A DNA stretch of 64,000 nucleotides, taken from assembly GCA_017521005.1 (NCBI GenBank), contig JAFXEC010000011.1:16450-80449 (forward strand), given 5' to 3'. Positions 9,539 to 60,708 of the stretch are shown piece after piece. Numbering within the stretch: the first letter of the stretch is position 1; each line of letters starts with the position of its first letter. The DNA comes from Clostridia bacterium. GTDB taxonomy: Bacteria; Bacillota; Clostridia; TANB77; CAG-465. The position numbers and the translations under genes are program-made. Below the pieces are notes generated by a model that was given only the letters and a program-made list of their open reading frames with translations, did not search any database and had not been told where the DNA came from.

Positions 9539-9544
9539 TTTCAC

Positions 9545-27591: not shown

Positions 27592-27620
27592 TTGACAAAT
27601 GCAAAATGGTAAGGTATAAT
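27592..27620 (+). promoter_or_regulatory. Strong sigma-A promoter driving an ORF-less transcript
   Basis: TTGACA, 17 nt spacer, TATAAT. Preceded by the yfmH terminator hairpin at 27545-27575. Confidence 0.65.
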
Positions 27621-27626: not shown

Positions 27627-28070
27627 CTACAAACAATTTAGTAGATACTAACTATGTATCTTGTTGTATGTTAGAGTAGTGTTTTGAATGCGATTATTGC
27701 ATGTGCCCGCGAAACCCGACCACGGGTGGTGCTATAGGTTAGTAGCGGCGAGCGAACGCTTGGCACTAGCTGGGTAATGAAACCTTAATCGGCGGCTAAG
27801 ACCCGTTAGTAGAAACACAACTTTGATATAAATATGTTGGATAATCCGATGTATCCGAAAGGACTTGGTTATTCAAGGTGAATGGCATAAGCGTGAAGGG
27901 TAAACGTGACATGTCAGCGGGGAAGACTGCAAAGATATACTATATAACAAAACCGTCCGGAAGGATTTGTTACGAACTAGTATACTCCTCGTAGATGAAA
28001 AGGGGTAACCCACTCCTTATCTAATAGTCTATAAAGCAGGAAAGAGGCACGCAGGCCTCTTTCTTTTTTT
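27627..28070 (+). ncRNA. Candidate structured noncoding RNA (~440 nt, GC-rich) with 23S-rRNA-like motifs
   Basis: No ORF of 60 aa or more. GC far above local background. Ends in GC hairpin AAAGAGGCACGCAGGCCTCTTT plus T-run. Contains GAAACCCGACCAC, AGTAGCGGCGAGCGAAC, CTTGGCACTAG and GGGGTAACCCAC, which resemble the 23S 5-prime domain as recalled. Confidence 0.5.
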
Positions 28071-28077
28071 GCTTAAA

Positions 28078-28104
28078 TGTCGAAAAATGCCGAAAAATAG
28101 CGAA
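28078..28104 (+). promoter_or_regulatory. Three helically phased Spo0A-box-like repeats (TGTCGAA / TGCCGAA / TAGCGAA)
   Basis: Repeats at 28078, 28088 and 28098, about 30-55 bp upstream of TTGACA (28134) and TATAAA (28157) of the spo0E-like gene. Confidence 0.4.
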
Positions 28105-28175
28105 ACTTGCGGTCGATTGTTGGTGCAAAATTATTGACACTGTAAAATAAAAATGTTATAAATTTGGTGTGAGGG

Positions 28176-28361
28176 ATGATGAATAACATGCTAAACAAAA
28201 TAAATATACTAAGAGAAAAATTAGAAAGACAATTATTAGAAGAAAAACCTTATAATGAGGTGTTGAAAACGAGTAGAGAAATTGATGAACTTTTAGTAGA
28301 GTTTTATAAAAAGGAGACTCCTATTAAGGACGAAACTTTATTTTTGATCAAACAAAATTAA
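28176..28361 (+). CDS. Spo0E-like sporulation regulatory aspartyl-phosphate phosphatase
   Basis: ...KINILREKLERQLLEEKPYNEVLKTSREIDELLVEFYK... helical hairpin typical of the Spo0E family. Confidence 0.6.
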   Translation: MMNNMLNKINILREKLERQLLEEKPYNEVLKTSREIDELLVEFYKKETPIKDETLFLIKQN

Positions 28362-28655
28362 AGCAAGTATTATGACTATGCTATAATCAATTTGATTTTC
28401 TTTGAACATAAAAAACAGGGTTACAAGAATTATTAGATCGTCTATATTGATGCTTATTCCAAATAATTCTACTCTGTCATCTGTTAAATTAAAGAGATTA
28501 TTTTTATCTATATTTCTATTTTGATTTGTTTCATTTGAAATTTGTTCGCCAGAATAATTTTCAGGTATGTGATTTAAAGAGCACATATTGTTCATATATG
28601 CTCTTTGAGGGAAATAAAAAGGGTTGTTATAAAAAGGATAATACATTTTAATCAC
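28338..28655 (-). CDS. Hypothetical protein, Y/P/N-rich N-terminus, hydrophobic C-terminus
   Basis: Overlaps the upstream gene by ATGA. Third gene of a coupled operon. Confidence 0.45.
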   Translation of the reverse strand: MIKMYYPFYNNPFYFPQRAYMNNMCSLNHIPENYSGEQISNETNQNRNIDKNNLFNLTDDRVELFGISINIDDLIILVTLFFMFKENQIDYSIVIILALILFDQK

Positions 28656-29079
28656 GATCCTTGCCGTTAAATAAGTTAAAAGCTTTCATAACTCCTAAAA
28701 GAGATATGTAAGTATCAATGTTTTTTTGCCTATTTTCTCTTAAGAATGGTTTAAGCGAAGATAGTAAATTTTGCCTTGGGTCTGGGCTGTTCATTCCACT
28801 TAAAACATTTTGAAATTTCATAATAGAATTTAAATCAAAACCACCTAGATTAGGTGAAATTGTTTTGTTCTCCAAGTTTATATCACTTTTAGAATTACTT
28901 GTGTTTAACATACTAACAATTTTTGAAATATCTAATCCGCTAAAATCTGTATTAGAAGTTTGTTTTGGAGTAGTTGGTTCTACTGTATTTACTTCGTTTA
29001 ATTTGCTTTGTATAGAGGCGACAATGTCTAAAATAGGATTGGAAGGTTGGTTTTCTACTTCATTTATTTCGGTATTCAT
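28648..29079 (-). CDS. Hypothetical N/S/T-rich protein (143 aa)
   Basis: Start ATG is immediately adjacent to the stop of the unlisted 54-aa ORF. Confidence 0.5.
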   Translation of the reverse strand: MNTEINEVENQPSNPILDIVASIQSKLNEVNTVEPTTPKQTSNTDFSGLDISKIVSMLNTSNSKSDINLENKTISPNLGGFDLNSIMKFQNVLSGMNSPDPRQNLLSSLKPFLRENRQKNIDTYISLLGVMKAFNLFNGKDRD

Positions 29080-29244
29080 TTAATTATTGTTTTGACCTTG
29101 TTGGGAGTTGTTATTGTTCATACCCAACATTCTTACTAAATTATTCAAATCGTCTTTAGACATGTTTTTAACTATATTAGAAACTTGTTCTAGTTTTTCT
29201 TTATCTACACCAGCTAACATGTTTAGCAAATTAGAATTCAACAT
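29080..29244 (-). CDS. Small N/Q-rich protein (54 aa), not in the ORF track
   Basis: Manual translation MLNSNLLNMLAGVDKEKLEQVSNIVKNMSKDDLNNLVRMLGMNNNNSQQGQNNN. AGGAGATG RBS. Translationally coupled to the 143-aa gene. Confidence 0.5.
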   Translation of the reverse strand: MLNSNLLNMLAGVDKEKLEQVSNIVKNMSKDDLNNLVRMLGMNNNNSQQGQNNN

Positions 29245-29318
29245 ATTATTCACAAAATCATCTCCTTATATCCATTTATTAAAGTATATGCAGGGAGATG
29301 TAAAAAAGTTACAAAGAG

Positions 29319-29843
29319 GTGATTATAATTTTAGGAAAGTTTATAACAAGAGATGTATCAAGTTTGTACAATATAGAAAGAATAGCTGAGGATGGCGTCA
29401 TATTTGCAAATAAAAGAAAAATTAGTATTTACAAAGTAAATCCGGTAAATATAATAGCTTGGAATAAGGAAATGAAAAACAAAATAATATCAGCATATAT
29501 AGCCACGTTAAGGGGAATGCCAGACATGTTTCAAATAGTTGTGACAAAGCAAAAAAGCACATTGAAAAACGATATAGAACTGTACAAAAAAAGGTTGTTA
29601 GAAGTCGAAAATTATGGGTTGAAAATGGCTCTTAAGAATTATGTGGAATATTTACAAAAGATAGAAAACGAAAATGGAATATGCGAAATAAAACACTATT
29701 TAATAGTAGAAGAAAAAGGAAGAGAAGAAACAGAGAACATACACAATGCGTTTTTAAATATGAATGAGTTTGGTATGGAAATAAAAAGGGTAAATAGAAA
29801 AGCGGAAGTTGAAAATGTTATTAAGAGAGCGATGGAAACATGA
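29319..29843 (+). CDS. VirB4/TraC-like ATPase, N-terminal segment (split gene)
   Basis: ...EDGVIFANKRKISIYKVNPVNIIAWNKEM...IISAYIATLRG...FQIVV... matches the VirB4 N-domain pattern (DGiI..kiY.l.dvN...e.e.i...f..fL...Qi.i). Stop overlaps the next ATG (ATGA). Confidence 0.55.
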   Translation: MIIILGKFITRDVSSLYNIERIAEDGVIFANKRKISIYKVNPVNIIAWNKEMKNKIISAYIATLRGMPDMFQIVVTKQKSTLKNDIELYKKRLLEVENYGLKMALKNYVEYLQKIENENGICEIKHYLIVEEKGREETENIHNAFLNMNEFGMEIKRVNRKAEVENVIKRAMET

Positions 29844-31516
29844 GACGAAATACTGAAATTAAAAAGATTCTGCCGTCAGAGGTAAAAGAAAAATACAATT
29901 GTATGAAAGTGCAAGCAAAGTATATAAATGTGATGAGTATAGTAAGTATGAACGAAGTGATTTTCCTAGAGATGATTAATACTCTACTTTTACAAGAGGA
30001 AGTAACTATATCGTTTCATATATATAGACAAAATGGTCCAGAATTCTTGAGAAAATTAGCAAGAAGTGTGTTGGAAAGTGGTGCGGAAATTAAATCAATA
30101 AAGCAAAATCAATTGGATATTGAAGTGTTGGAAAAAAACAAGAAGAATGCCGAAGAAATAAAAAAAGAAATACAGGTAAATAATGAAGAAGTATATATAG
30201 TAGAAATATATGTTGCGCTTACAGCAAATGATGAAAACGAAGTGCTAAAAAAGAGTAATAATATAAAAAATGTTTTATATACAAAAGGAATTGTGTTGAA
30301 CCCAACATATTTTAAGCAAAAGAGCGGATATATTGCAACTTTGCCGTTGTTACAAACAAACAGCACATTAAGCGATTATACGGAGAATATTATGCTTACT
30401 ACAACTCTTGCAAGGATGTTCCCATTTTTTGAAAATGACATTTTAAATGAAAATGGAGTGTTTATAGGATGTCACGAAGATAAACATATTAAGTTATCAC
30501 TTCTTGCCCCACAGAATTTAAATTATAATATGTGTGTTTTTGGAAGTAGTGGAGTCGGAAAATCATTTTTTATAAAAGTATTAATAATGCGTAATTTTTA
30601 TAATAATGTTAATCAAATAATAATAGATCCAGAAGGTGAGTATAAGGATATAGTTTTAAGTTTAGGCGGGAACGTTTATGATATAGCAACATACAATCCT
30701 ATGTATATTGAAGAGAGATTTGCAAAAAGAAATGAAGATTTTTTAGCTGATACGATAAAACTAACGGAAGAATATCTATTTTATAGGCATGGCTTAGAAA
30801 ATGTAACATCACAAATAAAGAATGAATATTTAAAATATGGGATAACACAAGAGATAGAAACGCTTTATGAAAAAAGTAGAGAAGACAAAATATATTTGCA
30901 CCCTAAATACAAGACAAACTTCCCGCATATTAAACACATCTTGGATAGATTAAAAATACAGAATAACTTAAAAGAAACTGCTGGAATACCTACAACAGCT
31001 AAATTACACTGCTTTGTATTAAAGGGCAAGAATAAAGAAGAAATTAACAAAGAAATATCGGTATTTCTTCCTAAAATAAAACAATTAATACAAGAGAATA
31101 CGTTAATTTATTTTGATGAAATATGGAAAACAATAAACGCAAATATTACGGGGACTTTTATAGAAGAGATATATAATTTTTTCAAAACTTTAAGAAAAAG
31201 GAAGGCAGGTATAGTAGCTATTAGTCAAGATATAGGCGATTTATTTGCGATAGATGATGGTAATTTTGGAAAGAGTATATTAAACAATTCGTTTACTAAA
31301 ATATTTTTCAAAATGTCTTATTCGGATTTAGAAAAACTTCAAGGTATAGAAGAAACATTGAATTTGAGAGAGAAAACAACAAAGTTGATTAGAGGCGAAG
31401 CATATGTTCTACAGGGAGAAAGTAAATTTATTATTAGAATAGAAGCAAATGATTTCGAAAAAAATTTAATTGAAAAGGAGAGTGTATATGAAGAAAGTTT
31501 TAATAGCAATGGATAA
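29840..31516 (+). CDS. VirB4/TraC-like (CagE/TrbE) ATPase, C-terminal ATPase segment
   Basis: Walker A FGSSGVGKSF, IIIDPEGEY, Walker B LIYFDEIWK (DEAW-type) and AISQDIGDLF. Confidence 0.7.
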   Translation: MRRNTEIKKILPSEVKEKYNCMKVQAKYINVMSIVSMNEVIFLEMINTLLLQEEVTISFHIYRQNGPEFLRKLARSVLESGAEIKSIKQNQLDIEVLEKNKKNAEEIKKEIQVNNEEVYIVEIYVALTANDENEVLKKSNNIKNVLYTKGIVLNPTYFKQKSGYIATLPLLQTNSTLSDYTENIMLTTTLARMFPFFENDILNENGVFIGCHEDKHIKLSLLAPQNLNYNMCVFGSSGVGKSFFIKVLIMRNFYNNVNQIIIDPEGEYKDIVLSLGGNVYDIATYNPMYIEERFAKRNEDFLADTIKLTEEYLFYRHGLENVTSQIKNEYLKYGITQEIETLYEKSREDKIYLHPKYKTNFPHIKHILDRLKIQNNLKETAGIPTTAKLHCFVLKGKNKEEINKEISVFLPKIKQLIQENTLIYFDEIWKTINANITGTFIEEIYNFFKTLRKRKAGIVAISQDIGDLFAIDDGNFGKSILNNSFTKIFFKMSYSDLEKLQGIEETLNLREKTTKLIRGEAYVLQGESKFIIRIEANDFEKNLIEKESVYEESFNSNG

Positions 31517-32729
31517 TGAAACGTTACTTAGTCAAATAAAAAAATGTGGTAAATATTTAACATATGGTTATGATATTGATAATAAAGAAAATGTACTAGA
31601 ATATTTAAGTAAAAATGTGGTTGATGTTATAGTTACGAAAGACACGTTAAATGGAGATATTGAATTTAAGGAGTATATAAGAGAAATAAGAAAAAGACAA
31701 GAGACAATAAAAATTGTAGTAGTAATAGCAGCGCTAACGGAAGATATAAAAGGTTTTTTGTTAGCAAATGAGGTAAATAACATAATAGAAGGAGAGTGTG
31801 TAGCATTTAGCAAAATACTAGAGATGATAGATAGCAAAAGTGGAATAATAGAGAAAATGGAAACACAAAAAAATGTGATAAAACAAAGTCCAAAGATAAC
31901 TACAAAGCAAAAGATTTGCGTTTTTGGAACAAGTGGTGCAGGTAAATCATATATTTCAAGCATACTAGCACACCACATTAGTAAAAAATACAAATTGAAC
32001 ACATTGCTTATAGATATGGATCTCCAAAACGCCGCGGTGGATATATATAACAATTTAACAAATGCTACAAATTCACTGGATTGTTTGATGGAAGAAATAG
32101 ATAATGACACTTTTAATAGAGAGTCCTTGCTAGATTATATTAGTAGGGGTGAGAAAAATAATAAACTATCGTTTATAACAAATAACGTAGGCGTTTATGA
32201 ATGTCAAAATAGGTTGTCTAAAAAGTATTATGAAAAATTGTATACGGAAGCGGAAAAAAATTATGACACTATAATAATAGATATGCCGTCAACACCATTT
32301 TTAGATGTAGTTCCGTTTTCGCTTATGCAAGCAGATAAAATTCTGTTTGTGCTTAATCCTAATTTTATTAGCATTAGACAAGCTATAAAATATATTGATT
32401 TAATGGTAAATGTATGGCAAATAGATAAAGAAAAAATATTTTTAATAATAAATAAAACAACCGAGAACTCTTTAACACTTAAACAAGTGAAAGCAATGTT
32501 AAGAGATTATACTGTGTTGCTAAAGTTGGAAGAAACGAGAAATGTTGAAAAAATAGTAAATGGTTTAGCAAATATAACTGGCGAAGAAATAATAGATACA
32601 GATGAATTGACAAAGATGTTAAATATAGATGACTGTGTACAAAGAGTGAAAGGTGAGGAAAAAACGAGTGCTTATAAATGCATACAGAACTGTTTTGGTA
32701 GAAAAGAAAACAAAAAAGATACAAAATAG
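31488..32729 (+). CDS. TadZ/CpaE-like ATPase: receiver-like N-domain plus ParA/MinD-type P-loop domain
   Basis: N-terminal ~130 aa with CheY-like pattern (MKKVLIAMDNETLL...VVDVIVTKD...). Then VFGTSGAGKSYISSILA P-loop and ...LLIDMDLQN.... Confidence 0.6.
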   Translation: MKKVLIAMDNETLLSQIKKCGKYLTYGYDIDNKENVLEYLSKNVVDVIVTKDTLNGDIEFKEYIREIRKRQETIKIVVVIAALTEDIKGFLLANEVNNIIEGECVAFSKILEMIDSKSGIIEKMETQKNVIKQSPKITTKQKICVFGTSGAGKSYISSILAHHISKKYKLNTLLIDMDLQNAAVDIYNNLTNATNSLDCLMEEIDNDTFNRESLLDYISRGEKNNKLSFITNNVGVYECQNRLSKKYYEKLYTEAEKNYDTIIIDMPSTPFLDVVPFSLMQADKILFVLNPNFISIRQAIKYIDLMVNVWQIDKEKIFLIINKTTENSLTLKQVKAMLRDYTVLLKLEETRNVEKIVNGLANITGEEIIDTDELTKMLNIDDCVQRVKGEEKTSAYKCIQNCFGRKENKKDTK

Positions 32730-33843
32730 TAACGAAATAATAAAGCAAATTGCTAAGCGATTGTTGGATGAGGAACTAGAAACAATAGAAAAAGGAAATA
32801 AAGAAAAGCTGGTTAAAAAAATAGAAACCAATTTAATTAATGATTTTGAAATAGTGGAAGAAAAAACAGTAGATTACTATATAAAGGAAGTGCTAAACAG
32901 AATATATGGATACGGTATTTTGGAAAAGTTTTTAAGGGATGGAAAGACTACAGATATACGAGCAGTCGCGTTTGATAACATTTATATAAAGCAGATGGGA
33001 AAATGGAAAAGAGTAAATGAAACATTTGCGAACAATGAAGAATTTGAAGAATATATTAGATTTTGTGCATTGAAAAACAATTATAATATAAACAACGAGA
33101 ATCCTATTGGAGTTTTTAGTGATAGAAAAATGGGGCTCAGAATAGAAGCTGGTATAAGCCCGGTTAATATTAACAATTCTAGTTTGGTTATAAGAGTTCA
33201 CAGAAAAGAGATGGATAAAACATTAGAATTATTAAAACAAAAATATAAGATGTTAGACGAAAAATCATATATGACAGTTAAAAAAGCTGTAAACAGAATG
33301 AATAATATTTTAATTTGTGGAAAAGGCGGGAGCGGAAAAACGACATTGCTAAGAGCGATTATAAATGAGCTGCCACAGACTATTGCTATAAATACTAATG
33401 AAGAAACGGCAGAATTGTACTTAGAAGGAAGAAATGTTATTCAAAGAGAGTGTTTGTTGACTAGAACGGAAGACAAGAACATAGATTTGGATAGACTGTC
33501 TAGGCATTCTTTGGTGATGTCAAATGATGTTATTGTAATAGGTGAATTAAAAGGAAAAGAAGCAAATTCGTTTTTTGACGCGGTTTCAACAGGACATATG
33601 GGACTTGCAACAGTACATTCGGATTCCGCAAAAAACGCAATTGATAGAGTAATTACATTAATAAGAAAAGACTCAAAAGCAACACAATATACAGAAAAAT
33701 TCTTAAGACGATTTTTGGCAGAGACAATAGATTATATTATTTGGATGAAAGATTTTGAAGTGAAAGAAATAAGTGCTATCAAGTATGATGAAATTAATGA
33801 TAAATTTAAGATGGAATTTTTATATAAGAAGGTGCAGTGTTGA
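32653..33843 (+). CDS. CpaF/TadA/VirB11-family secretion ATPase
   Basis: Walker A ILICGKGGSGKTTLLRAII, Walker B ...DVIVIGELKG, His-box-like ...GLATVHSDSAKNAIDR. Confidence 0.7.
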   Translation: MRKKRVLINAYRTVLVEKKTKKIQNSNEIIKQIAKRLLDEELETIEKGNKEKLVKKIETNLINDFEIVEEKTVDYYIKEVLNRIYGYGILEKFLRDGKTTDIRAVAFDNIYIKQMGKWKRVNETFANNEEFEEYIRFCALKNNYNINNENPIGVFSDRKMGLRIEAGISPVNINNSSLVIRVHRKEMDKTLELLKQKYKMLDEKSYMTVKKAVNRMNNILICGKGGSGKTTLLRAIINELPQTIAINTNEETAELYLEGRNVIQRECLLTRTEDKNIDLDRLSRHSLVMSNDVIVIGELKGKEANSFFDAVSTGHMGLATVHSDSAKNAIDRVITLIRKDSKATQYTEKFLRRFLAETIDYIIWMKDFEVKEISAIKYDEINDKFKMEFLYKKVQC

Positions 33844-34706
33844 TAGAAATAATACAATTTAGTTTGTTAATATGTGCTGTATATATAATGGTTGAATGGG
33901 CGATAAAAGATTATATAAGTCCTGTAAAATTACTTAATAGAAGCAAGATGTTTCATTCGTTAAATGTAGAGTTGCAGAACTTAAATATTAAAAGGGGGTT
34001 AAGAGGTAAAGTTCGAATAACTACTTTGACTGTAATTATAATTAGTGCAATTTTGTTTTTAATATTTGTTTTTATTTTATTTATATATATAAGGATTTTA
34101 AGTACCGCCGTAATTCTTTCGTTACCTATTTTAATTTCACCAATAATTATATCTAAAATTCTAGTTATACGAAATAAAGAAAAAATATCTAAGCAAATCC
34201 CTTTTTACACAATTAATATAAAGAATCAAATGAAAGAAGATAATGATATAGTTCAAGCTATAAAAAGAACAAAGGTAGAAGAACCACTAAAAAAACATAT
34301 AGATAAATTCAAATTAAATGTATTTAACGGAATGAATGTGATATCTGCTATGGAAAAACTAAAAAGTGATGTGGATGTAAAAGATTTTGGTGAAATGATA
34401 GAGACGTTTGAAGTTTGTTATAAAAATGGTGGCGATTTTGTAAAAGTGTTAGAAAAAATTATTCTTATGAAAACTAAAGAAAGGATGTATAAAGAAGAGA
34501 CTGAAGAAAAGGCTTTCGCGTCGGTAGTTACATTGATAATAATGATGTTGTTGAGCGTTTTTGTAATTGCAACATTTGTATTTGGTAATTTAGAATATGC
34601 AAATATAGTACGAAGTACATTTGGTGGAAAGCTAATTTTAAATTTAACTGCAATATCGTACATGGTAATGACATGGATAATTGCTAAAGTATATAAGGAG
34701 GATTAA
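33837..34706 (+). CDS. TadB/TadC-like platform protein (T2SS-F domain)
   Basis: TM, then cytoplasmic helical domain (...VISAMEKLKSD...CYKNGGDFVKVLEKI...), then C-terminal TMs. GspF/TadB architecture. Confidence 0.55.
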   Translation: MLIEIIQFSLLICAVYIMVEWAIKDYISPVKLLNRSKMFHSLNVELQNLNIKRGLRGKVRITTLTVIIISAILFLIFVFILFIYIRILSTAVILSLPILISPIIISKILVIRNKEKISKQIPFYTINIKNQMKEDNDIVQAIKRTKVEEPLKKHIDKFKLNVFNGMNVISAMEKLKSDVDVKDFGEMIETFEVCYKNGGDFVKVLEKIILMKTKERMYKEETEEKAFASVVTLIIMMLLSVFVIATFVFGNLEYANIVRSTFGGKLILNLTAISYMVMTWIIAKVYKED

Positions 34707-34707
34707 G

Positions 34708-35436
34708 ATGGATATAGATGCTATGATAGATAGAGTAAGAAATAATGTGCTGGAACTAGACACAGACAGAAGACTAGATGTATTAAAAGGTGATCTACAA
34801 TCGATTTCTGAAAAAGCGTTAGAAAAGTCGATGAATTATATAATAAAATCAATACCTATGCCGGATGCTGTTAGAGATGTATTAAAAGATGTTAAGGAAA
34901 CCATAAAAACGAAAGAGCTTAGGGAGATTATAAAAACAGCAGTAAACAGTAGTATTAGGGAAGGTTTGGAAATAGCGGGCGTATCAAAAACAAATATTAA
35001 TACGTTAAAAGATATGAAAAACTTTGCTTTTAAGGGAGGACTGGTTATATTGTTAAAGAATGGCCTCGAGATAGTGGAAAATAAGTTCTTGAAAAATAAC
35101 ATTGTAAGCGATTATGTGTATAGTTTTTTTACAAAACTAAAAAACTGCATTTTAAGTAAGGAATTCTTAAAGAAGATAGATTCAATGGTGGATAGATTAA
35201 CAAATAAAAAACAAGAATACATTGAAAAATGTGAATCGTGGTATGATGCATATAGAAGCATGGATATAGTTAAGATTAATAAGTTATCTGAAGAGCTTGG
35301 GACTAATCATTATATAATTTCTAGATATGATGACTGCAATAGAGAAAATAAAATAATACAAAATATGACAAAAATGATAAATGCTAAAAAAGGGTTCCTT
35401 TCATTAGAACAGCAAAAACTGTGTGAATCAATGTAA
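34708..35436 (+). CDS. Hypothetical helical protein (243 aa) in the secretion-like cluster
   Basis: AAGGAGG RBS before MDIDAMIDRV.... No TM. Confidence 0.5.
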   Translation: MDIDAMIDRVRNNVLELDTDRRLDVLKGDLQSISEKALEKSMNYIIKSIPMPDAVRDVLKDVKETIKTKELREIIKTAVNSSIREGLEIAGVSKTNINTLKDMKNFAFKGGLVILLKNGLEIVENKFLKNNIVSDYVYSFFTKLKNCILSKEFLKKIDSMVDRLTNKKQEYIEKCESWYDAYRSMDIVKINKLSEELGTNHYIISRYDDCNRENKIIQNMTKMINAKKGFLSLEQQKLCESM

Positions 35437-35494
35437 TTTCGGGTATTGAAAGCAAAAATAATATGTAGTATAATGGTGCCAGGAGAGGGTGTTT

Positions 35495-35725
35495 ATGTCT
35501 AAATTAAAGGAAGTTCCAAATGCAAAAGCAAAATTAATAGGGATGTTAATATCTATAGCACTGATGGTATTTTCTGTTACGCAAGTATATTATCTTGCAT
35601 TATACACATTTGGACGTGAAATATCTGAAGATAAATTGGCAGTATATAAATGGGTTGTAAAGCTTGTTAATTATGACGAAAAAACAGATTCGACATTACA
35701 AGATGCTGCGCCAGATGCCGAGTAG
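35495..35725 (+). CDS. Small single-TM protein (76 aa)
   Basis: GGAGAGGG RBS before ATG MSKLKEVPNAKAKLIGMLISIALMVFSV.... Charged N-terminus, one TM, acidic tail. Confidence 0.45.
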   Translation: MSKLKEVPNAKAKLIGMLISIALMVFSVTQVYYLALYTFGREISEDKLAVYKWVVKLVNYDEKTDSTLQDAAPDAE

Positions 35726-35734
35726 GAGGTTGTT

Positions 35735-36073
35735 ATGAATTTTTACGATAAAGTACATGAACTAGTGAGAAATTTTAAGGATACAGAGGAATATAAAAAA
35801 TATATGGAACTAAAGAAGAAGGTAAAAGAAGATGCTATGTTAAAAGAAAAAATAGATACATTTAGAAACAAGCAAATGGATTACCAAAAACAATATATAA
35901 ACGGTACGCCAATGTCCGATACAAGCAAAGAAGAAATGCAACAACTATATTCTTTAATAATCCAAAGTCCTCTTGGAGCTGAATTTTTTCAAGCGGAAAT
36001 TAGACTAAATGTATTGCTTGCAGATATGCAAAAGATAATAAATGATGGAATGAAGGATATATTAGAGTTTTAA
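35735..36073 (+). CDS. YheA/YmcA/YlbF-like (UPF0342) regulator
   Basis: MNFYDKVHELVRNFKDTEEYKKYMELKKKVKEDAMLKEKIDTFRNKQ... matches the UPF0342 pattern. Confidence 0.65.
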   Translation: MNFYDKVHELVRNFKDTEEYKKYMELKKKVKEDAMLKEKIDTFRNKQMDYQKQYINGTPMSDTSKEEMQQLYSLIIQSPLGAEFFQAEIRLNVLLADMQKIINDGMKDILEF

Positions 36074-36075
36074 TT

Positions 36076-36648
36076 ATGGATTTATCATATCAAATGCAAA
36101 ACATGTTGAAACTATTAAAAAATAGTAAAACAAAAGTAGAGATAGCTGCTGATGTAAAGAAAGATGAATATAACTTTATGTCGGACAAGATATATATATC
36201 TACTAATACTGAAACTTTTCAAAAAGGGTTAGAAAAAGCTAATCCTTTTTGCCTTAAGTTGATAGCTATATATAAAGCATGTTTCAAATCTAAACAGAGT
36301 AAAATGCTACATGTATTTAATGTAATGTTAACAAATATTAGCATAATTATGTTTGCTATGATGATAATGTTTAGAATTGTGTTAGGGAAATCAAGAGGAG
36401 TATGTTTATTAACAATAATAGTAATGATATTCTCTATAATATTAATGCTATCTATGGAGGCAAACGCGTATAAAAGAGCGTGTAAACATATAAAGAAAAA
36501 TATAACTACGCTAGGAGACAAAGATATAACTAAGGAAAATGTGAATAGCGTGGAAAAGATAGTAGAAAAAATCAAGACAAAGTTGATAATTAACAAAGCA
36601 ATGTATAAACTAGTAATGGTAATAATTGCGCTTTTGTTAATGATATAA
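36076..36648 (+). CDS. Hypothetical membrane protein (about 3 TM)
   Basis: ORF directly after the YheA-like gene stop. Hydrophobic core. Confidence 0.45.
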   Translation: MDLSYQMQNMLKLLKNSKTKVEIAADVKKDEYNFMSDKIYISTNTETFQKGLEKANPFCLKLIAIYKACFKSKQSKMLHVFNVMLTNISIIMFAMMIMFRIVLGKSRGVCLLTIIVMIFSIILMLSMEANAYKRACKHIKKNITTLGDKDITKENVNSVEKIVEKIKTKLIINKAMYKLVMVIIALLLMI

Positions 36649-36664: not shown

Positions 36665-37522
36665 ATGGTATTTTCAAATAAATTTTATTATTTTCATTTG
36701 AACAGATATGAAAAGAAAATATACAGAAAATTTGAAAGAAATAAATGGCGCATGAAAAATGGTAAGGCAAGAATAGAGTTTTCTTATGCGTTTTCGTGGC
36801 TATTAAAATGGAGAAGTGGTTCGGATAAAATAAACGATTATTACGCAGAAGCTACAAGAGCATATTTGTATGATAACCCGGATGTGTTTTATATCGATCA
36901 AAATAAGATGTATATTAATACTTTAGCGAGACATAAAGGCGTAAGAAAAAGAACAAAAACATATATGGATGCGGGTGCTAATGGAAATTATTATGTTTAT
37001 GGATATAAGTCTAGATTACAAATTAGTATTATTGAAAGAAAGTTAAGAAAGATAGTTCGTGGGCTTAAAAGAGTAACTAGAGGAATGTCTGACTACGACA
37101 AAGTAAAGACGGTACATGATTATTTAGTTAATACTTGTAGATACGATATAGAATTTTCAAATCCTAATATGTTTAATATATATGGGGCGCTAATAGATGG
37201 CGTTTGTGTTTGTGCAGGCTATGCAAGAGCCTTAAAATATGTATTAGATGCTATGGGAATTAAATGTATTTGTATAATAGGTAGAGGCGGAGATATATTA
37301 GAAAGAGCAGAAGGGCATGCTTGGAACTATGTTAAATTAGATGGTCAGTGGTATGCTATAGATGTTACATGGGATGATCCCGTTGGAGATGTAGATGAAA
37401 TTAGATATGATTATTTCTTAATGGGAAGTAAACAAATAACAAAAGATCATTTGCCTTCTGAAGCTTATGATTATCCGGAACTTGCTGGAGATGGAAGAGA
37501 CAAAGTTTGTTATAAACTGTGA
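36665..37522 (+). CDS. Transglutaminase-like cysteine protease domain protein
   Basis: Cys-His-Asp triad context: DGVCVCAGYARAL ... EGHAWNYV ... YAIDVTWDD. Confidence 0.75.
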   Translation: MVFSNKFYYFHLNRYEKKIYRKFERNKWRMKNGKARIEFSYAFSWLLKWRSGSDKINDYYAEATRAYLYDNPDVFYIDQNKMYINTLARHKGVRKRTKTYMDAGANGNYYVYGYKSRLQISIIERKLRKIVRGLKRVTRGMSDYDKVKTVHDYLVNTCRYDIEFSNPNMFNIYGALIDGVCVCAGYARALKYVLDAMGIKCICIIGRGGDILERAEGHAWNYVKLDGQWYAIDVTWDDPVGDVDEIRYDYFLMGSKQITKDHLPSEAYDYPELAGDGRDKVCYKL

Positions 37523-37532
37523 TGGAGTATAT

Positions 37533-37994
37533 ATGTATAAAGAAAAATATATGAAAGAAGCTTTAAAAGAAGCTAAAAAAGCGCTAGCCAAGGATGAAGT
37601 GCCAATAGGCGCGGTTATAGTATTAGATGATAAAATAATAGCAAGAGGTCATAACCTTAGAGAAACTAAAATGAATAGTTTGAAACATGCAGAAATTGTT
37701 GTTATAGATAAGGCGTGCAAAAAGCTAAGTAATTTTAGGTTAGAAAAATGTGAATTATATGTAACTTTAGAGCCATGCCTTATGTGTTCTGGGGCGATAG
37801 TTCAATCTAGAATAAAAAAAGTCTATTTCGGCGCGAACGATGAAAAGTATGGAGCTGTTACAAGTGTAGCAAATGCGTTCGAGATAAAATCTAATCATAA
37901 AGTTGAATTTGAATCGGGAATCCTGAAAGAAGAGTGTGAAAAAATAATAAAAGACTTTTTTAAGGAATTAAGAGAAAAGAAGAAAAATAAATAA
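37533..37994 (+). CDS. tadA: tRNA-specific adenosine(34) deaminase TadA
   Basis: MYKEKYMKEALKEAKKALAKDEVPIGAVIV...HAEIVVI...LEPCLMCSGAI has the CDA zinc motifs HAE and PCxxC. Confidence 0.9.
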   Translation: MYKEKYMKEALKEAKKALAKDEVPIGAVIVLDDKIIARGHNLRETKMNSLKHAEIVVIDKACKKLSNFRLEKCELYVTLEPCLMCSGAIVQSRIKKVYFGANDEKYGAVTSVANAFEIKSNHKVEFESGILKEECEKIIKDFFKELREKKKNK

Positions 37995-38034
37995 AAAACA
38001 AGAACAAAGTTGTTTTCAACTTTGTTCTTTTATA

Positions 38035-41730: not shown

Positions 41731-44700
41731 GTGGTTCACGAAGTAAAAAATGGAAAAACAACAAGAAAGAGTTTTTCAAAAATCGCAGAAGTTATTGACA
41801 TGCCAGATCTTATTGAGGTACAAAAATCATCTTATAAATGGTTTTTAGATTCTGGACTTAGAGATGTTTTTCATGACATATCTCCAATAGTTGACTACTC
41901 AGGAAATCTAATGCTTGAGTTTGTTGACTATAGATTAGAAGATGAAACAAAATACTCTATAGAGCAAGCAAAAGAAAGGAACACTACATATGCCTCTCGT
42001 TTGCAAGTTAAAGTGCGTCTTTTAAACAAGGAAACAAGTGAAATAAAAGAGCAAGAAATATTCATGGGTGATTTCCCTCTAATGACAGAGAATGGAACAT
42101 TCATAATTAATGGTGCTGAAAGAGTTGTAGTAAGCCAATTAGTTAGAAGCCCAGGTGTATATTTTGATAGAATAAAAGACAAAACTGGTAAAATTACATT
42201 TACAGGAACAGTTATGCCTAACAGAGGTACATGGTTAGAATTTGAATCAGACCTTCAAGATATGTTATGGATAAAGGTAGATAGAACTCGTAAACTACCT
42301 ATAACTACATTTGTAAGAGCTTTAGGAATAGAAAAAGATGCTGAAATATTAGATTTATTTGAAGATGATTTAATAGCAGCGACTCTTGAAAAAGATCCTT
42401 CTAAAACTACAAATGCAGCACTTCTTGAAATCTACAAAAAATTAAGACCAAGTGAACCTTTACACGTAGATGCTGCAGAGCAACTATTATATGGTTTAAT
42501 GTTCGATGAAAGAAGATACGATCTATCTAGAGTTGGTAGATATAAATACAATAAAAAATTAAATCTTGCTACTAGAATAACTGGCGAAATAGCAGCTGAA
42601 GACGTAATTAACGGAGAAACAGGTGAATTATTCGTTAAGAAAGGTGAAAAGATCACTGCAGACGTTGCTGAAAACATCAGACAATCTGGTATCAACGTTG
42701 TATACGTAGATAAGAACGGAAAGAAAGTTAAAGTTATTGGTAACAATACAGTAGACATTTCTAAATATCTTGGTATTGAAGTAGATAAAATGGTTATCAA
42801 AGAAGATGTTCATTTACCAGTATTAAAAGAAATAGTTGAAAAAATGGAAGGTAAAGACGAAAAAGCTTTACAAAAAGAAATAAAGAAGAGAAGAGAAGAG
42901 TTAGTTGTAAAACACATTACAGTAGACGATATAATTTCTTCTATCAACTACTTTGTAAACTTCTATAATGGTATGGGTAAAATTGAAGATATCGACCATT
43001 TAGGAAATAGAAGAGTTAGATGCGTTGGTGAATTACTACAAAACCAATTTAGAATTGGTTTAACAAGACTTGAAAGAGTTGTTCGTGAAAGAATGGCTAC
43101 ACAAGATATGGATGTTACAACTCCACAAATGTTAATAAACATCAAACCAGTTGTTGGAGCAATCAAAGAGTTCTTTGGAAGCAGCCAATTATCTCAATTC
43201 ATGGATCAAATTAACCCACTAGCTGAGTTAACACATAAGAGAAGAATATCTGCATTAGGACCTGGAGGTCTTACTCGTGATAGAGCTGGATTCGAAGTTC
43301 GTGACGTTCACTATTCTCACTATGGTAGACTATGTCCTATCGAATCTCCAGAAGGACCAAACATAGGACTTATATCATCACTTCCTACATATGGAAGAAT
43401 CAATAGATACGGATTTATTGAAGCTCCATATAGAAGAGTGGATAAAGAAACAGGAAAAGTAACTGATGACATAGAATACATGACAGCAGATACAGAAGAT
43501 AATTACATAATTGCTCAAGCAAATGAACCATTAGATGCTGAAGGTAGATTTGTAAACAAGAAAATTAAAGTTAGATGCGTAAGAGAAATCCTAGAAGTAT
43601 CTCCAGATAAAGTAGATTACATGGACGTTTCTCCAAAACAATTAGTATCTGTTGCTACAGCAATGATACCATTCCTTGAAAGCGATGACGCTAAACGTTC
43701 GCTAATGGGATCTAACATGCAACGTCAAGCAGTTCCATTAATAAAAGCAGAAGCTCCAATTATAGGAACAGGAATAGAATATAAAGCAGCACAAGACTCT
43801 GGTACATGTATAGTAGCTGGCCAAGATGGTGTGGTTACATATGTAGATGGAGACAAAGTTGTTGTTGAAGGAAAACAAGGTAAAGAAGAACACTTATTAA
43901 CTAAGTTTAAACGTTCTAACCAAGGTACATGCCTAAACCAAAGACCAATAGTTGTTTCTGGTACAAAAGTTAAGAAGGGTGATGTGCTTGTAGATGGTTC
44001 TTCTACAGAACAAGGTGAAATGGCATTAGGTAAAAATATACTAATCGGTTTCATGACTTGGGAAGGATACAACTACGAAGACGCTATCTTAATTTCAGAA
44101 GATCTAGTTAAAGATGACGTATTAACTTCTATTCATATTGAAGATTATGACTGTGAAGCTAGAGATACAAAACTAGGACCTGAAGAAATCACTCGTGAAA
44201 TACCAAACGTTGGTGATGATGCGTTAAAAGATCTTGATGAAAACGGTATTATAAGAATAGGTGCAGAAGTAAGACCTGGAGATATCCTTGTAGGTAAAGT
44301 AACTCCTAAGGGTGAAACAGAACTTACTGCTGAAGAAAAATTATTAAGAGCAATATTCGGTGAAAAATCTAGAGAAGTAAGAGATACTTCACTTAGAGTT
44401 CCACACGGAGAAGCTGGTACAATTATAGATGTTAAGATCTATACAAGAGAAAATTCTGATGAATTAGCTCCAGGAGTACACAAAGTTGTAAGAATATACA
44501 TAGCTCAAAAGAAGAAAATATCTGTTGGTGACAAGATATGTGGACGTCACGGTAACAAAGGTATCATTTCTAGAGTATTACCTAGAGAAGATATGCCATA
44601 CTTACCAGATGGTACACCACTACAAATCGTATTAAACCCACTAGGTATACCTTCTCGTATGAACGTAGGTCAAGTGCTTGAAGTACACCTAGGTTACATA

Positions 44701-45402
44701 GCAAAACAACTTGGATGGAAAGTTGCAACACCAGTATTTGATGGTGCTAAGGAAGAAGATATTGAAAAATTATTTGAACAAGCCGGTTTAAGCGGAACTT
44801 GTAAGTTCCCTGTAAGAGACGGTAGAACTGGTGAATTATTTGATAACGAAGTTACAGTTGGTTACATGTATATGTTAAAACTTTACCACTTAGTTGATGA
44901 TAAGATTCACGCTCGTTCTATTGGACCATACTCTTTAGTTACACAACAACCTCTTGGTGGTAAGGCACAATTCGGTGGACAAAGATTTGGTGAAATGGAA
45001 GTTTGGGCTCTTGAAGCTTACGGTGCAGCATATGCTCTTCAAGAAATATTAACTGTTAAATCAGATGACGTTTCAGGAAGATTAAAAACATATGAATCAA
45101 TCGTTAAAGGTGAAAGCGTTCCAGAACCAGGAATACCTGAATCATTCAGAGTGTTAATTAAAGAACTACAAAGCTTAGGCTTAGATATGAAATTATACAA
45201 TCACAATGATGAAGTTGAAGTTAGAGAAACTGTAGACTTAACAGAAAAAACAATATTACCTGCAGATTACGAAACTACTGACATAGATCCTGAAAGCTAT
45301 GTTTTAGATGATGATTCTGGAATGGGTATAGAAGATGAAGACGGCGAAGAAGCATACGAACTTGCAGAAGATGATGATTTCGCTGATGACGAAGAAGTTT
45401 AG
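41731..45402 (+). CDS. rpoB: DNA-directed RNA polymerase beta subunit (GTG start)
   Basis: 1223 aa. Conserved RpoB blocks (...[20 protein letters not shown]..., ...[19 protein letters not shown]...). Confidence 0.97.
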
Positions 45403-45426
45403 TAGTAGGGAAGGAGAAAAAGTATA

Positions 45427-48400
45427 ATGGCAGAAAATAATAATGTAAATCCAGAAGTATTCGATAGATTAAGTATTGGAATAGCTTCTCCTGACAAAAT
45501 AAGAGAATGGTCAAAGGGTGAAGTTAAAAAGCCAGAAACAATAAACTATAGATCCCTAAAACCTGAACGTGACGGATTATTCTGTGAGAAAATATTCGGG
45601 CCAACAAAAGACTGGGAATGTTATTGTGGTAAATATAAGAAAATAAGATATAAAGGAATTATATGTGATAGATGTGGTGTTGAAGTAACTAAGAAAAGCG
45701 TAAGACGTGAAAGATTAGGACACATTGAACTTGCAACACCAGTGTCTCACATCTGGTTCTTCAAAGGAATTCCAAGTAGAATGAGTCTTATAATAGACGT
45801 TTCTCCTAAAGCTTTAGAAAGAGTTGTATACTTTGCAGCATACATAGTTATGGATCCAAAGGATACAGGACTTTCATACAAGCAAATATTATCTGAAAAA
45901 GATTATAGAGAAGCAATTGAAAAATACGGTGAAGATTCATTTGTAGTTGGAATGGGAGCAGAAGCTATTAGAGAACTTTTAGCTAAAGTTGATCTTCATA
46001 AAGAAGAAAAAGAAATTAGAAAAGCTCTTGAAACAGCTACTTCTCAAAAACGTTTGAAATTAATTAAACGTTTAGAAACAATAGAAGCATTTATAGCATC
46101 AGGAAATAGACCAGAATGGATGGTACTAGAAGTAATACCAGTTATTCCACCTGATTTAAGACCAATGGTTCAATTAGATGGTGGTAGATTTGCTACTTCT
46201 GATCTAAATGACCTATATAGAAGAGTTATAAATAGAAATAACAGATTAAAGAGACTTATTGAACTTGAAGCTCCAGACATTATCATAAGAAATGAAAAGA
46301 GAATGCTACAAGAATCAGTAGACGCTTTAATAGACAATGGAAGACGTGGAAGACCTGTAACAGGTGCTGGAAACAGACCACTTAAATCTTTATCAGATAT
46401 GTTAAAAGGAAAACAAGGTAGATTTAGACAAAACCTACTTGGTAAGAGAGTTGACTATTCTGGACGTTCAGTTATCGTTGTTGGTCCTGAACTTAAGATT
46501 TACCAATGTGGATTACCACGTGAAATGGCACTTGAATTATTCAAACCATTTGTAATGAAAGAATTAGTAAAAAGAGAATTAGCATTCAATATTAAAAATG
46601 CTAAGAGAATGGTAGAAAGAGCAGCAGTTGAAGTTTGGGATGTTCTTGAAGATGTTATCCAAGATAGACCAGTATTATTAAACCGTGCTCCAACTCTACA
46701 CAGACTTGGTATCCAAGCATTCGAACCAGTTCTAGTTGAAGGTAGAGCAATTAAACTACATCCGTTAGTTTGTGCTGCGTTTAACGCCGACTTCGACGGT
46801 GACCAAATGGCCGTACACGTACCATTATCACCAGAAGCTCAATCAGAAGCTAAATTCTTAATGCTTGCATCAAACAACTTGTTAAAACCACAAGATGGTA
46901 AAGCTGTTACAGTACCATCACAAGATATGATACTTGGAAGCTACTACTTAACAGTTGAGTATGATGATGAACCAGGTGTTGGTAAAGTATTCAAAGATGA
47001 AGACGAAGCTTTAATGGCATATGACCAAAAAGTTGTTGGACTTCATGCACCTATTAAACTTAGAGTAACTAAGGAAATAGATGGTAAGAAAGTATCTAAA
47101 ATAATAGATACAACAGTTGGTAGAATAATATTTAATGGTATTATTCCACAAACTTTAGGATATGTAGATAGAACAAATCCTGAAAATGCTTTCAGACAAG
47201 AAATAGAATTCCCTGTTAGAAAGAAAGAAATAGGACAAATAATAGATATGAGTATCGAAAAATTTGGTATTCCTGATACAGCAGTAATGCTAGACAATAT
47301 CAAATCTTTAGGTTACAAATATTCTACAGTAAGTGCTATTACAGTTTCTGTAGCAGACATGGAAGTTCCACCTGAAAGAGAACAAATACTAAAAGAAGCT
47401 GATGAAGCCGTAGATAAAGTATATAAAAACTACAAACGTGGTCTTATATCTGATGAACAAAGATACAACGAAGTTGTTAAGATTTGGGGTAAAGCTACTG
47501 ATGACATCCAAGATGCTATCATGAAGAACCCTAACATTAAAAACCCAGTACGTATTATGGCTCATACAGGTGCCAGAGGTAACCCAAAACAAATGAGACA
47601 ATTATCTGGTATCCGTGGACTTATGGCAGATACATCAGGTAAAGCGGTAGAAATACCAATCAGATCAAGCTTTAGAGATGGTCTAGACGTTCTAGAATAC
47701 TTCATTTCTTCACACGGTGCTCGTAAAGGTCTTGCCGATACAGCCCTAAGAACAGCTGACTCTGGTTACTTAACAAGAAGATTAGTTGACGTTAACCAAG
47801 AAGTTATAATAACTGCAGAAGATTGTGGAACTGAAGACGGTCTTTATGTTGAAGCTATTATGGAAAGTGGAGAAGCTATAGAAAAACTACTTGAAAGATT
47901 AGAAGGTAGATACTTAGCTGAAGATATTAAAGATGCTGAAGGCAATGTAGTATTTGCAAGAGATACATATATCTCAACAGCAATTGGAAAACAAATAATG
48001 GATTTAGGATACACTAAAGTTAAAATACGTTCAGCTCTTACTTGTGATATGGGAAGAGGCGTATGTGCTAAGTGTTATGGTAAAAACCTTGCAACAGGTG
48101 AACCAATTAACGTTGGTGAAGCAGTTGGTATAATTGCTGCACAATCAATCGGTGAACCAGGTACTCAGTTAACAATGAGAACTATCCATACTGGTGGTGT
48201 TGCGGGTGGCGCAGATATCACACAAGGTCTTCCTCGTGTTGAAGAATTATTCGAAGCGAGAAAACCAAAGGGTGTTGCGATTGTTACAGAAATAGCTGGT
48301 ACTGTAAGAGTAGAAGCTGTAGATGATCTAAATAAAGACGTAATTGTAACAAACGAAGAAGGCACAAGCATGAGATACCCAATCTATAGTGCAAGACCTC

Positions 48401-49002
48401 TTGTAAAAGACGGCGATGTAATAGAAGCTGGTGCAAGACTTACTGAAGGTTCATTAGATCCACATGATGTTATTAGAATTAATGGAGAAGTTGCAGTTCA
48501 AAACTACATCATCCAAGAAATTCAAAAAGCATATAGAACTCAAGGTGTTAACATTAACGATAAACACATTGAAATTGTTGCAAAACAAATGTTAAGAAAA
48601 GTTAGAGTATTAGATGCAGGTGAAACTAACCTAGTTGCTGCTTCTATGGTAGATATAAATGAATTTAAATCTGCTAACAAAGAAGCTAGAGAACAAGGTA
48701 AGAAAGAAGCTACTGGTAAGAGAGAATTACTAGGTATCACAAAAGTTGCGTTACTTACAGATTCATTCTTATCTTCAGCATCATTCCAAGAAACAGCTAG
48801 AGTATTAACAGATGCAGCAGTTAAAGGTAAGACAGATAAGTTACTAGGATTAAAAGAAAACGTAATCATTGGTAGATTAATTCCAGCAGGAACAGGACTC
48901 GTAGATTACTCAGATATTAGATTATCTTCTAAAGATACAGAAGTATCTCACATAGATGATGATATAGTATCTAGCACAATCATAGATAACATATATGAAT
49001 AA
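45427..49002 (+). CDS. rpoC: DNA-directed RNA polymerase beta-prime subunit
   Basis: 1191 aa. Zn-finger CDRCGVEV and catalytic [12 protein letters not shown]. Confidence 0.97.
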
Positions 49003-56990: not shown

Positions 56991-57263
56991 TTATCTCACC
57001 TCGGTATTTAGAGTATATCAAAAAGATAAAAGCATTACAAGTAATTAAGAGGTTATTTTGAATGTTCCAAGCGTAACCGTAAAGTCATTTGGAAATACTG
57101 TTATGGATTCTATGGAAAGTTTGCCGGTTAAAAGTAGCAAAATTACAAGCAATTTATTTAAGTCACAACCACCAGAGTTAGAAAAGAAATCGTTAAGTGA
57201 AGAACTATTTAAATTAGATAAAAATTCATCCATTTTACCACCTATTAAAATATATTAGAAAGC

Positions 57264-57983: not shown

Positions 57984-58028
57984 TTGTTTGACTTGAAAAC
58001 AAGTAGCGATTGATGTATAATAACAAAA

Positions 58029-58125
58029 GTCGCTTAGGCAATAAGAAGTTTATGAACCTTGTCAGGTCCGGAAGGAAGCAGCAATAAGTAAATTCTCTTA
58101 TGTGCTATAAGCGATTTTTTGTATA
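58029..58125 (+). ncRNA. ffs: Signal recognition particle RNA (small 4.5S type)
   Basis: Domain IV motif GTCAGGTCCGGAAGGAAGCAGC. 5-prime and 3-prime ends pair. Promoter TTGAAA, 17 nt spacer, TGTATAAT at 57994-58022. Followed by TTTTTT. Conserved position before dnaX. Confidence 0.85.
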
Positions 58126-58149
58126 TATAAGATATAAGGGGTTGAAAAA

Positions 58150-60707: not shown

Positions 60708-60708
60708 T

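Follow-up and report, generated by a model that had tools for sequence, protein, structure and literature searches.

What kind of machine is encoded where a conjugation-type ATPase shares an operon with the motor genes of a filament system? The question is raised by a locus in a 64,000-nt stretch of DNA from an uncultured Clostridia bacterium (assembly GCA_017521005.1, contig JAFXEC010000011.1, positions 16,450 to 80,449), hereafter the window, in which all positions are counted unless another locus is named. VirB4 is taken as a universal marker of conjugative and effector type IV secretion systems (T4SS), and T2SSE and T2SSF as that of type IV filament machines; here they are combined in one operon. 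We found that this operon has six genes, that it is neither a conjugation system nor a complete pilus system, and that it is ancient, vertically inherited, origin-proximal and confined to one order of uncultured low-GC gut Clostridia. We tentatively favour the reading that the six genes encode a pared-down ATPase machine, domesticated and assembled from components of T4SS and Tad-type systems, which would act at the membrane on entry into sporulation or stationary phase. An earlier sequence-only reading of the locus had called the cluster undescribed, and our literature search likewise found no description of it. The six genes are as follows.

29319-29843, plus strand: g1, apparent detached VirB4 N-terminal-domain protein, 174 codons counted from GTG
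29840-31516, plus strand: g2, predicted VirB4-type ATPase body, 558 aa
31470-32729 (open reading frame), plus strand: g3, receiver-like N-domain plus ParA/MinD-type ATPase, likely start ATG at 31488
32653-33843, plus strand: g4, T2SSE hexameric ATPase of the CpaF/VirB11/FlaI group
33837-34706, plus strand: g5, single-domain T2SSF (TadB/TadC-like) platform membrane protein
34708-35436, plus strand: g6, clade-specific soluble all-helical protein, 242 aa

Between 29319 and 36648 lie nine open reading frames (ORFs), all on the plus strand and tightly spaced or overlapping, a layout that the sequence-only reading had described correctly. It had also taken the nine as one unit; the unit is the six genes from 29319 to 35436, and those at 35489-36648 are neighbours. 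Genes g1 and g2 join in an ATGA overlap, g4 and g5 overlap by 7 nt, and g5 and g6 are spaced by 1 nt. The gene set is not a product of chance, since its frames are long (174-558 codons) in DNA of ~29% GC and the set was found again in 80+ loci.

The largest protein of the operon is a predicted VirB4-family ATPase. Among NCBIfam models, g2 matched VirB4_plasma with 157.7 bits (E 2.7e-46), conju_CD1110 with 129.6 bits and TraC-F with 80 bits, the first two scores lying under the equivalog cut-offs, and its Pfam matches were P-loop_TraG (58 bits) and DUF87 (48 bits). The scores against HerA models were 15-23 bits (HerA_antiphage, 15 bits). The single match among PDB sequences was the C-domain of the Thermoanaerobacter VirB4 (4AG5, E 2.6e-15), and g2 aligned with residues 305-863 of the 869-aa VirB4 from the C. 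argentinense plasmid pRSJ17_1 at 24% identity. Both the Walker A (GSSGVGKS) and Walker B (YFDEIW) motifs were invariant across 17 divergent homologues, and the database entry for the identical protein reads 'MAG: DUF87 domain-containing protein [Clostridia bacterium]'. Among characterised proteins, g2 is closest to the VirB4 proteins that conjugative plasmids of Firmicutes encode, and 490 of the 700 plasmid records matching g2 were conjugative. The profile scores, together with 4AG5 as the sole PDB sequence match, rule out an assignment to FtsK or HerA, in agreement with the original view of the 558-aa protein as VirB4-like.

The gene g1, previously left unassigned, is now linked to VirB4 by profile search. 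It matched positions 103-273 of VirB4_plasma (E 1.1e-5), and its orthologues matched the Pfam family PF26593 (TraC-like); BLASTP against the plasmid VirB4 N-terminus gave no significant match. Judged solely by these profile matches, g1 appears to correspond to the detached N-terminal domain of VirB4. Since g1 matches the N-terminal part of the same profile as g2, the two are one VirB4 divided into two translationally coupled genes, and the split was seen in all 77 loci where a separate g1 ORF turned up. Across loci the g1 frame is open for ~180-200 codons, and 25 of 65 loci have no ATG, GTG or TTG preceded by a Shine-Dalgarno sequence; there, ATA or ATT comes after a strong Shine-Dalgarno sequence. 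In the window, the Shine-Dalgarno sequence GAGGTG is followed by ATT at 29328, which is probably the true start, and this suggests non-canonical initiation, as with infC. Gene callers overlook g1, for example at 9414-10001 of locus L003 and in locus L004, because a canonical start codon preceded by a Shine-Dalgarno sequence is absent.

The VirB4 ATPase does stand side by side with a T2SSE ATPase, a T2SSF protein and a receiver plus ParA-like ATPase, the combination for which the locus had been singled out. The protein g4 is clearly a T2SSE ATPase (Pfam, 95.7 bits) in which Walker A, Walker B (GELKGKEA) and the His box are all intact. Its best NCBIfam match was VirB11 (132.5 bits), with TadA-like at 112.5 bits, and the PDB matches were CpaF (79 bits), VirB11 HP0525 (73 bits) and FlaI (69 bits). 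Orthologues of g4 carry the NCBI name 'CpaF family protein' and share 45-55% identity at distances where g2 identity is ~30%. The earlier label of CpaF/VirB11-like ATPase therefore holds for the T2SSE family, but CpaF is not preferred and VirB11 is equally close. Because of this, the argument for a VirB4/Tad hybrid rests on the T2SSF protein and on the TadZ-like layout of g3. The former was upheld as a TadB/C-type platform protein: g5 scored 29.3 bits against a T2SSF cut-off of 25.2 bits, 14 of 15 orthologues matched T2SSF, and a hydropathy scan gave ~4-5 transmembrane (TM) segments. The 'envelope-spanning apparatus' that had been proposed is not supported: g5 is the only polytopic membrane protein in the six-gene unit and is itself lost in most lineages.

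The evidence for g3 as a TadZ/CpaE-like protein is mixed. The protein matched Pfam CbiA with 33 bits, and the N-terminal Response_reg match was weak (E 0.008); among 41 orthologues, CbiA was matched in 33, AAA_31 in 19 and Response_reg in 3. The best PDB relatives of the family profile were MinD and ParA proteins (MinD 4v03, E 4e-18), no TadZ structure was among the 60 matches listed, and the Walker A motif is classical rather than deviant. A single-sequence AlphaFold2 model had a predicted local distance difference test (pLDDT) score of 36, too low to judge TadZ likeness. Thus the receiver plus ParA/MinD layout was retained from the first description and membership by sequence was not. The last protein, g6, is predicted to be soluble and all-helical, and its AlphaFold2 model had a pLDDT of 88. 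Its family has 143 representatives among 1.84 billion protein clusters, and in almost every locus that is complete enough g6 is found alongside the VirB4 genes. Of the small membrane or helical proteins said to be interleaved in the cluster, the one at 34708 (g6) belongs to the unit, and those at 35495 and 36076 are encoded by neighbours. A phage origin was also considered and rejected, as PHROGs gave nothing beyond generic ATPase and ParA matches.

The surroundings of the operon are those of a core chromosome, and the window is part of the origin region. The genes dnaN and dnaA occupy 19-2874 of the minus strand, with rnpA, yidC, jag, rsmG, soj and spo0J coming next; farther along are the signal recognition particle (SRP) RNA and a presumed dnaX-ybaB-recR cluster. 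The operon is ~27 kb from dnaA, flanked by yqeY and two M16 peptidase genes upstream and by tadA downstream, and the window has a GC content of ~29-35% and a uniform base composition. We scanned with Pfam almost all window ORFs of at least 110 aa (all except the presumed mnmE/mnmG at 6259-9538 and seven ORFs at 55980-63447) and found no relaxase, coupling protein, VirB6/VirB8, A24 peptidase or integrase. A motif scan of the window ORFs found no class-III or Flp-type signal peptide, and among the nine ORFs, no member of the VirB3/PrgI, VirB6-like, VirB8-like or cell-wall hydrolase families was found with Pfam and NCBIfam. The absence of VirD4, relaxase, VirB6/VirB8, pilin and prepilin peptidase nearby, noted from the sequence before, was confirmed by these Pfam and motif scans. 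No relaxase or coupling protein was found in the gene tables of related loci either. A standard conjugative module with its relaxase and coupling protein just outside the cluster is rejected: almost all of the window was covered by the Pfam scans and is core chromosome, and the related loci are flanked by housekeeping genes.

Compared to the conjugative T4SS of Gram-positive bacteria (MPF-FA/FATA; TraE, PrgJ, TcpF, ConE, CD1110), the operon shares only the VirB4, as g1 and g2 together are a VirB4 of this group. Unlike in those systems, its VirB4 is split, chromosomal and vertically inherited, and it is not accompanied by PrgI/VirB3, VirB6-like or VirB8-like proteins, a hydrolase, a coupling protein or a relaxase; the VirB4 of pRSJ17_1, by comparison, lies with PrgI, a large VirB6-like protein and a C40 peptidase. 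The operon has T2SSE and T2SSF genes, which to our knowledge Gram-positive T4SS lack. With VirB4 alone present, membership in the conjugative T4SS fails. Membership in the Tad systems fails as well. Like the Tad/Flp motor (CpaF/TadA, TadB plus TadC, TadZ/CpaE), the operon has an adjacent T2SSE, a single-domain T2SSF and a receiver plus ParA-type ATPase. However, it has one platform gene in place of the TadB/TadC pair, its g3 has a classical Walker A motif and is closest to MinD, its g4 is equally close to VirB11, and it contains a VirB4, whereas the locus and window contain no Flp pilin, pseudopilins or TadV/CpaA peptidase.

Domesticated VirB4-containing T4SS that lack a relaxase and a type IV coupling protein and serve a cellular function are known from H. 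pylori ComB and from the archaeal Ced/Ted DNA import systems. The operon likewise lacks both, but also lacks the channel and pilin parts that these systems keep (VirB2/6/8/9/10, CedA). A second precedent is SpoIIIA-SpoIIQ, a sporulation channel made from secretion parts, with a T2SSE/VirB11-like SpoIIIAA and a GspF-like SpoIIIAB. Models of SpoIIIAA and SpoIIIAB were not among the best 25 of the 51 NCBIfam matches of g4, nor were they the single match of g5. In contrast to SpoIIIA-SpoIIQ, the operon has no proteins with ring-building motifs, has a VirB4, and is preceded by Spo0A boxes and a sigma-A-type core rather than a sigmaE-type promoter.

To describe the distribution of the operon, we scanned one genome per species. 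At least 555 of 600 scanned genome stretches encode relatives, and the best 80 of these at least 555 were examined as loci, all of them from metagenome-assembled genomes of uncultured Clostridia. The names of the relatives include CAG:571, CAG:921, CAG:1219 and Candidatus Merdicola, from which the carriers would probably belong to the GTDB order TANB77; the order is probably endospore-forming. Clustering of ORFs across 84 loci revealed two fixed chromosomal contexts. In type A loci, which resemble the window, GT4-yqeY-M16-M16-Spo0E-like genes and three minus-strand genes precede g1-g2-g3-T2SSE-T2SSF-g6, and a CapA-like gene or its remnant, a YlbF-like gene, a membrane protein gene, usually a CwlD-like amidase gene, and tadA follow. 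In type B loci, the majority of those fetched, the order is dnaA-dnaN-recF-gyrB-[g1-g2-(g3)-g6]-gyrA, such that a reduced cluster sits between gyrB and gyrA, 5-6 kb from dnaA, in L003, L004 and ~55 other loci. Judged from translated sequences, the L003 insert seems more AT-rich than the flanking gyrase genes.

The gene order g1-g2-g3-T2SSE-T2SSF-g6 persisted down to ~30% VirB4 identity in the M16...tadA context. The six-gene set was also found outside the type A context in L041, L071 and L023, with the L041 copy directly upstream of gyrA, and in a neighbour-joining tree of g2 these three loci, which retain T2SSE and T2SSF, were placed at the base of the gyr clade. Most simply, given this placement, the six-gene set would be ancestral and would have moved as a unit. 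The T2SSE/T2SSF pair then appears to have been lost in the crown group and g3 several times, in a reduction series from six genes to four and to three, with g1, g2 and g6 staying together in almost every locus with sufficient sequence. As a unit, the cluster is conserved, with the same six genes in the same order in two chromosomal contexts. The fixed syntenic positions in 80+ species-level loci are not the behaviour of a mobile element, and the operon is vertically inherited at fixed chromosomal sites.

Upstream of the operon, a recurrent signal was the 0A box TGTCGAA, which is the core site of Spo0A in Bacillus and is recognized with the same specificity by C. difficile Spo0A (PMC3485338). 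Of 75 loci, 36 have the exact box no farther than 300 nt upstream of g1, nearly always forward-oriented, against a chance expectation of ~1. The loci, 1.43 Mb in total, contain the 7-mer 121 times; 40 of these occurrences precede g1, and 6 precede the Spo0E-like gene. Aligned, the upstream regions share the architecture TGTCGAA-N3-4-TGnCAnACGA-N5-7-TTGACA-N17-TAnnAT, followed by a short leader, a Shine-Dalgarno sequence and g1; that is, a putative sigma-A promoter follows the 0A box, and tandem Spo0A-box motifs are present in about half of the loci. We infer from this architecture that the operon may be under Spo0A control in most lineages. Regex scans for sigmaE, sigmaK, sigmaF, sigmaG and sigmaH promoters upstream of g1 gave nothing consistent, and DnaA boxes showed no overall enrichment there.

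Other sporulation-linked genes occur near the operon. Locus L013 (16808-18347) has two Spo0A-like genes a short distance downstream of g6, past one unassigned 285-aa ORF; one is truncated (155 aa), and the other is full-length (285 aa) with the Spo0A C-terminal signature. CwlD-like amidase genes are present in type A loci. In the window, a 61-aa Spo0E-like gene at 28078-28361 on the plus strand (Pfam SpoOE-like, 24.2 bits) has a promoter with TTGACA at 28134-28139 and TATAAA at 28157-28162, preceded by TGTCGAA at 28078 and further CGAA repeats, and this promoter element is conserved in L001, L007 and L008. The term 'spore-former' that had been applied to the host is plausible from the Spo0E-like gene with its 0A boxes and from the Spo0A- and CwlD-like genes in related loci.

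How might these parts work together? In the domesticated machine that we tentatively favour, the CpaF/VirB11-type hexamer (g4) would dock on the single-domain T2SSF platform (g5) in the cytoplasmic membrane, and the receiver plus ParA-like ATPase (g3) would position the assembly, as TadZ/CpaE does at cell poles. The indispensable ATP-driven step would come from the VirB4 hexamer together with its detached N-domain, g6 serving as an adaptor. Phosphorylated Spo0A would switch the operon on at entry into stationary phase or sporulation, and the machine would move or assemble a macromolecule at the cytoplasmic membrane, possibly at the polar septum. A bolder version is doubtful. In it, a VirB4 complex made of the split VirB4 and a clade-specific helical adaptor, and ancestrally coupled to a Tad-type motor and a ParA-like positioning ATPase, was recruited from conjugation and pilus ancestry into the Spo0A developmental programme of the whole order; chromosome, DNA or protein would be its substrate, at the membrane or septum, when sporulation begins. 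If it were true, this would be the first case of a T4SS ATPase serving housekeeping or development in a Gram-positive bacterium.

Several observations weigh against the domesticated machine. Since no membrane protein is left in the reduced form (g1, g2 and g6), placing the core at the membrane is a guess, and comparison of g6 with solved structures found no specific fold relative. No 0A box was found upstream of g1 in the window, L001, L005-L009, L011, L013, L052 or L055; the 0A-box counts are not independent, as many loci come from related species; and a factor other than Spo0A could bind the motif. The g2 tree behind the ancestral six-gene set was midpoint-rooted without an outgroup. The system may also be dispensable or decaying in places, because g2 is frameshifted exactly in the Walker A motif in L085 (7069-8794; NMCVLGSSRSRE...), and g6 is split into ORFs of 163 and 97 aa in L003 (13935-14691) and L004, two independent assemblies.

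The strongest competitor to the domesticated machine is that the operon is the motor of a Tad-type fibre or a DNA-uptake (competence) machine whose pilins, peptidase and channel are encoded elsewhere, a candidate being the Tad pilus cluster of TANB77 (Kim et al. 2024); VirB4 would then serve as a second motor or as a pilin dislocase. The trio of T2SSE, T2SSF and receiver-ParA protein is the signature of a Tad-type motor, VirB4 is required for pilus biogenesis in T4SS, and a homologue of the YlbF/YmcA 'competence regulator' is encoded downstream, although this gene is limited to the window-type context. Neither the window nor the 10-kb flanks of 80+ loci yielded a pilin, peptidase, ComEC or ComEA gene. 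A Tad pilus cluster, with seven pilin-like genes, is indeed conserved in TANB77 genomes; like the operon, it is lineage-restricted, has TadZ/CpaE-, TadA/CpaF- and TadB/C-like genes, and probably belongs to the same bacterial order. However, the published cluster has its own CpaB (358 aa), TadZ (231 aa), CpaE (280 aa), TadA (640 aa, with one TM helix) and fused TadC-TadB (693 aa) and has no VirB4 (PMC11680825). Since every gene size differs and VirB4 is missing there, we rejected identity of the two clusters. Moreover, most lineages kept VirB4 and g6 and lost T2SSE and T2SSF, the opposite of what would be expected of a Tad motor, which disfavours a Tad motor as the essential function. We regard the fibre or uptake machine as unlikely.

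Distinctly unlikely, in our view, is a cytoplasmic DNA-handling motor, in which a VirB4 hexamer, as a member of the FtsK/HerA superfamily, and a ParA-like partner would act on the origin region at the onset of sporulation, to anchor it, segregate it or translocate it into the forespore. In both contexts the operon lies close to the origin (~27 kb from dnaA in the window; between gyrB and gyrA, 5-6 kb from dnaA, in most loci), but proximity to oriC is weak evidence of function. The ParA/MinD-type partner g3 and the minimal form without a membrane protein would suit such a motor, whereas the ancestral form has a membrane platform protein and a secretion ATPase. The promoter with its Spo0A boxes would also suit it, as several early sporulation and chromosome-organisation genes of Bacillus have Spo0A boxes. 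DNA translocation by VirB4 proteins is not known, however, and no DNA-binding domain was detected in the six proteins with Pfam or NCBIfam.

A decaying, now functionless remnant of an ancient integrated conjugative element would explain the kinship of g2 with conjugative plasmid proteins, the progressive gene loss and the occasional frameshifts. It is nevertheless very improbable, because gene order and long frames were kept in ~29% GC DNA at ~30% VirB4 identity and the ATPase motifs are invariant. The promoter motif is also conserved, the place in the chromosome stays fixed over hundreds of species, and no integrase, relaxase, repeats or compositional anomaly accompanies the operon. An anti-phage or anti-plasmid defence system around a HerA/VirB4-like ATPase is hardly credible and was rejected: the PADLOC matches (for g2, mad8 at 65.6 bits plus weak HerA and AbiLi; for g4, PtuA-like) are far under the 157.7 bits of VirB4, no nuclease, Sir2, methylase or other effector gene is present, and the locus is fixed and vertically inherited rather than placed in a variable island.

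If the domesticated machine is real, it would mean that such motors can be domesticated for uses beyond conjugation, secretion or pili. MacSyFinder-style classifiers would miss or mislabel the operon. TANB77 is an abundant uncultured order of the human gut that has been linked to immunotherapy response, and a clade-defining machine that is probably under Spo0A control may bear on its sporulation, transmission and cultivability. The conserved promoter, small gene set and clear reduction series make the question approachable.

The features that border the operon in the window are given below.

29283-29312, minus strand: promoter-like element AC-N17-CATATA[A/C]T, found in an upstream alignment of eight window-type loci
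35446-35474, plus strand: sigma-70-like site TTGAAA-17-TATAAT, 11/12 matches, between g6 and the downstream neighbours
35489-36648, plus strand: neighbour genes outside the machine, namely a CapA/PGA_cap remnant, a YlbF/YmcA-family protein and a membrane protein

The promoter-like site at 35446-35474 is likely the boundary of the unit. No terminator-like sites were found from the g1 start (29319) to 37185, and the first strong terminator is a bidirectional hairpin at 38000-38029, 3' of tadA. Beyond the boundary, a 78-aa ORF (35489-35725) aligns with the N-terminal TM region of a CapA/PGA_cap protein, the gene of which is full length (390-442 aa) in the same slot in L010, L011, L012, L025, L052, L055 and L086; the ORF is an N-terminal TM remnant of this gene. 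It is followed by the YlbF/YmcA-family gene (35735-36073; Com_YlbF, 82 bits) and by a gene for a 190-aa membrane protein (36076-36648), both of which occur in the window-type context only. All three neighbours were absent from every fetched locus of the gyrB-gyrA context.

Farther downstream, in the 36665-37994 region, a transglutaminase-like gene (ORF 36665-37522) overlaps the longest tadA ORF by 56 nt; its top NCBIfam match was a Mycoplasma MAG6410-family lipoprotein (98.7 bits). As context only, the same slot holds a CwlD-like Amidase_3 gene in other lineages.

On the upstream side, three small minus-strand genes without family assignment (28338-29253; 57, 143 and 105 aa) diverge from g1. 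They are present in all window-type loci and absent from gyrB-gyrA-type loci. The element at 29283-29312 occupies most of the 65-nt gap upstream of g1 and looks like a sigmaK/sigmaE (mother-cell) promoter that would serve these divergent genes (29253-28338).

Elsewhere in the window, rpoB and rpoC lie near the origin, at 41731-49002, and the position of rpoB is alike in L085. Upstream of the window rpoB, a divergent tyrosine-phosphatase gene and tRNA-Arg genes take the place of the usual rplJ-rplL. Upstream of the operon, the segment 27592-28075 on the plus strand holds a candidate structured noncoding RNA of ~440 nt that is GC-richer than its surroundings. A search of this stretch (27.6-28.1 kb) against Rfam gave no match at the gathering score or at E <= 1. 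The candidate has a perfect TTGACA-17-TATAAT promoter at 27592-27620, a strong terminator hairpin at 28038-28075 and a fold z-score of -3.5, and it is conserved in L005 (97%) and L006 (85%) only, with apparent compensatory changes.

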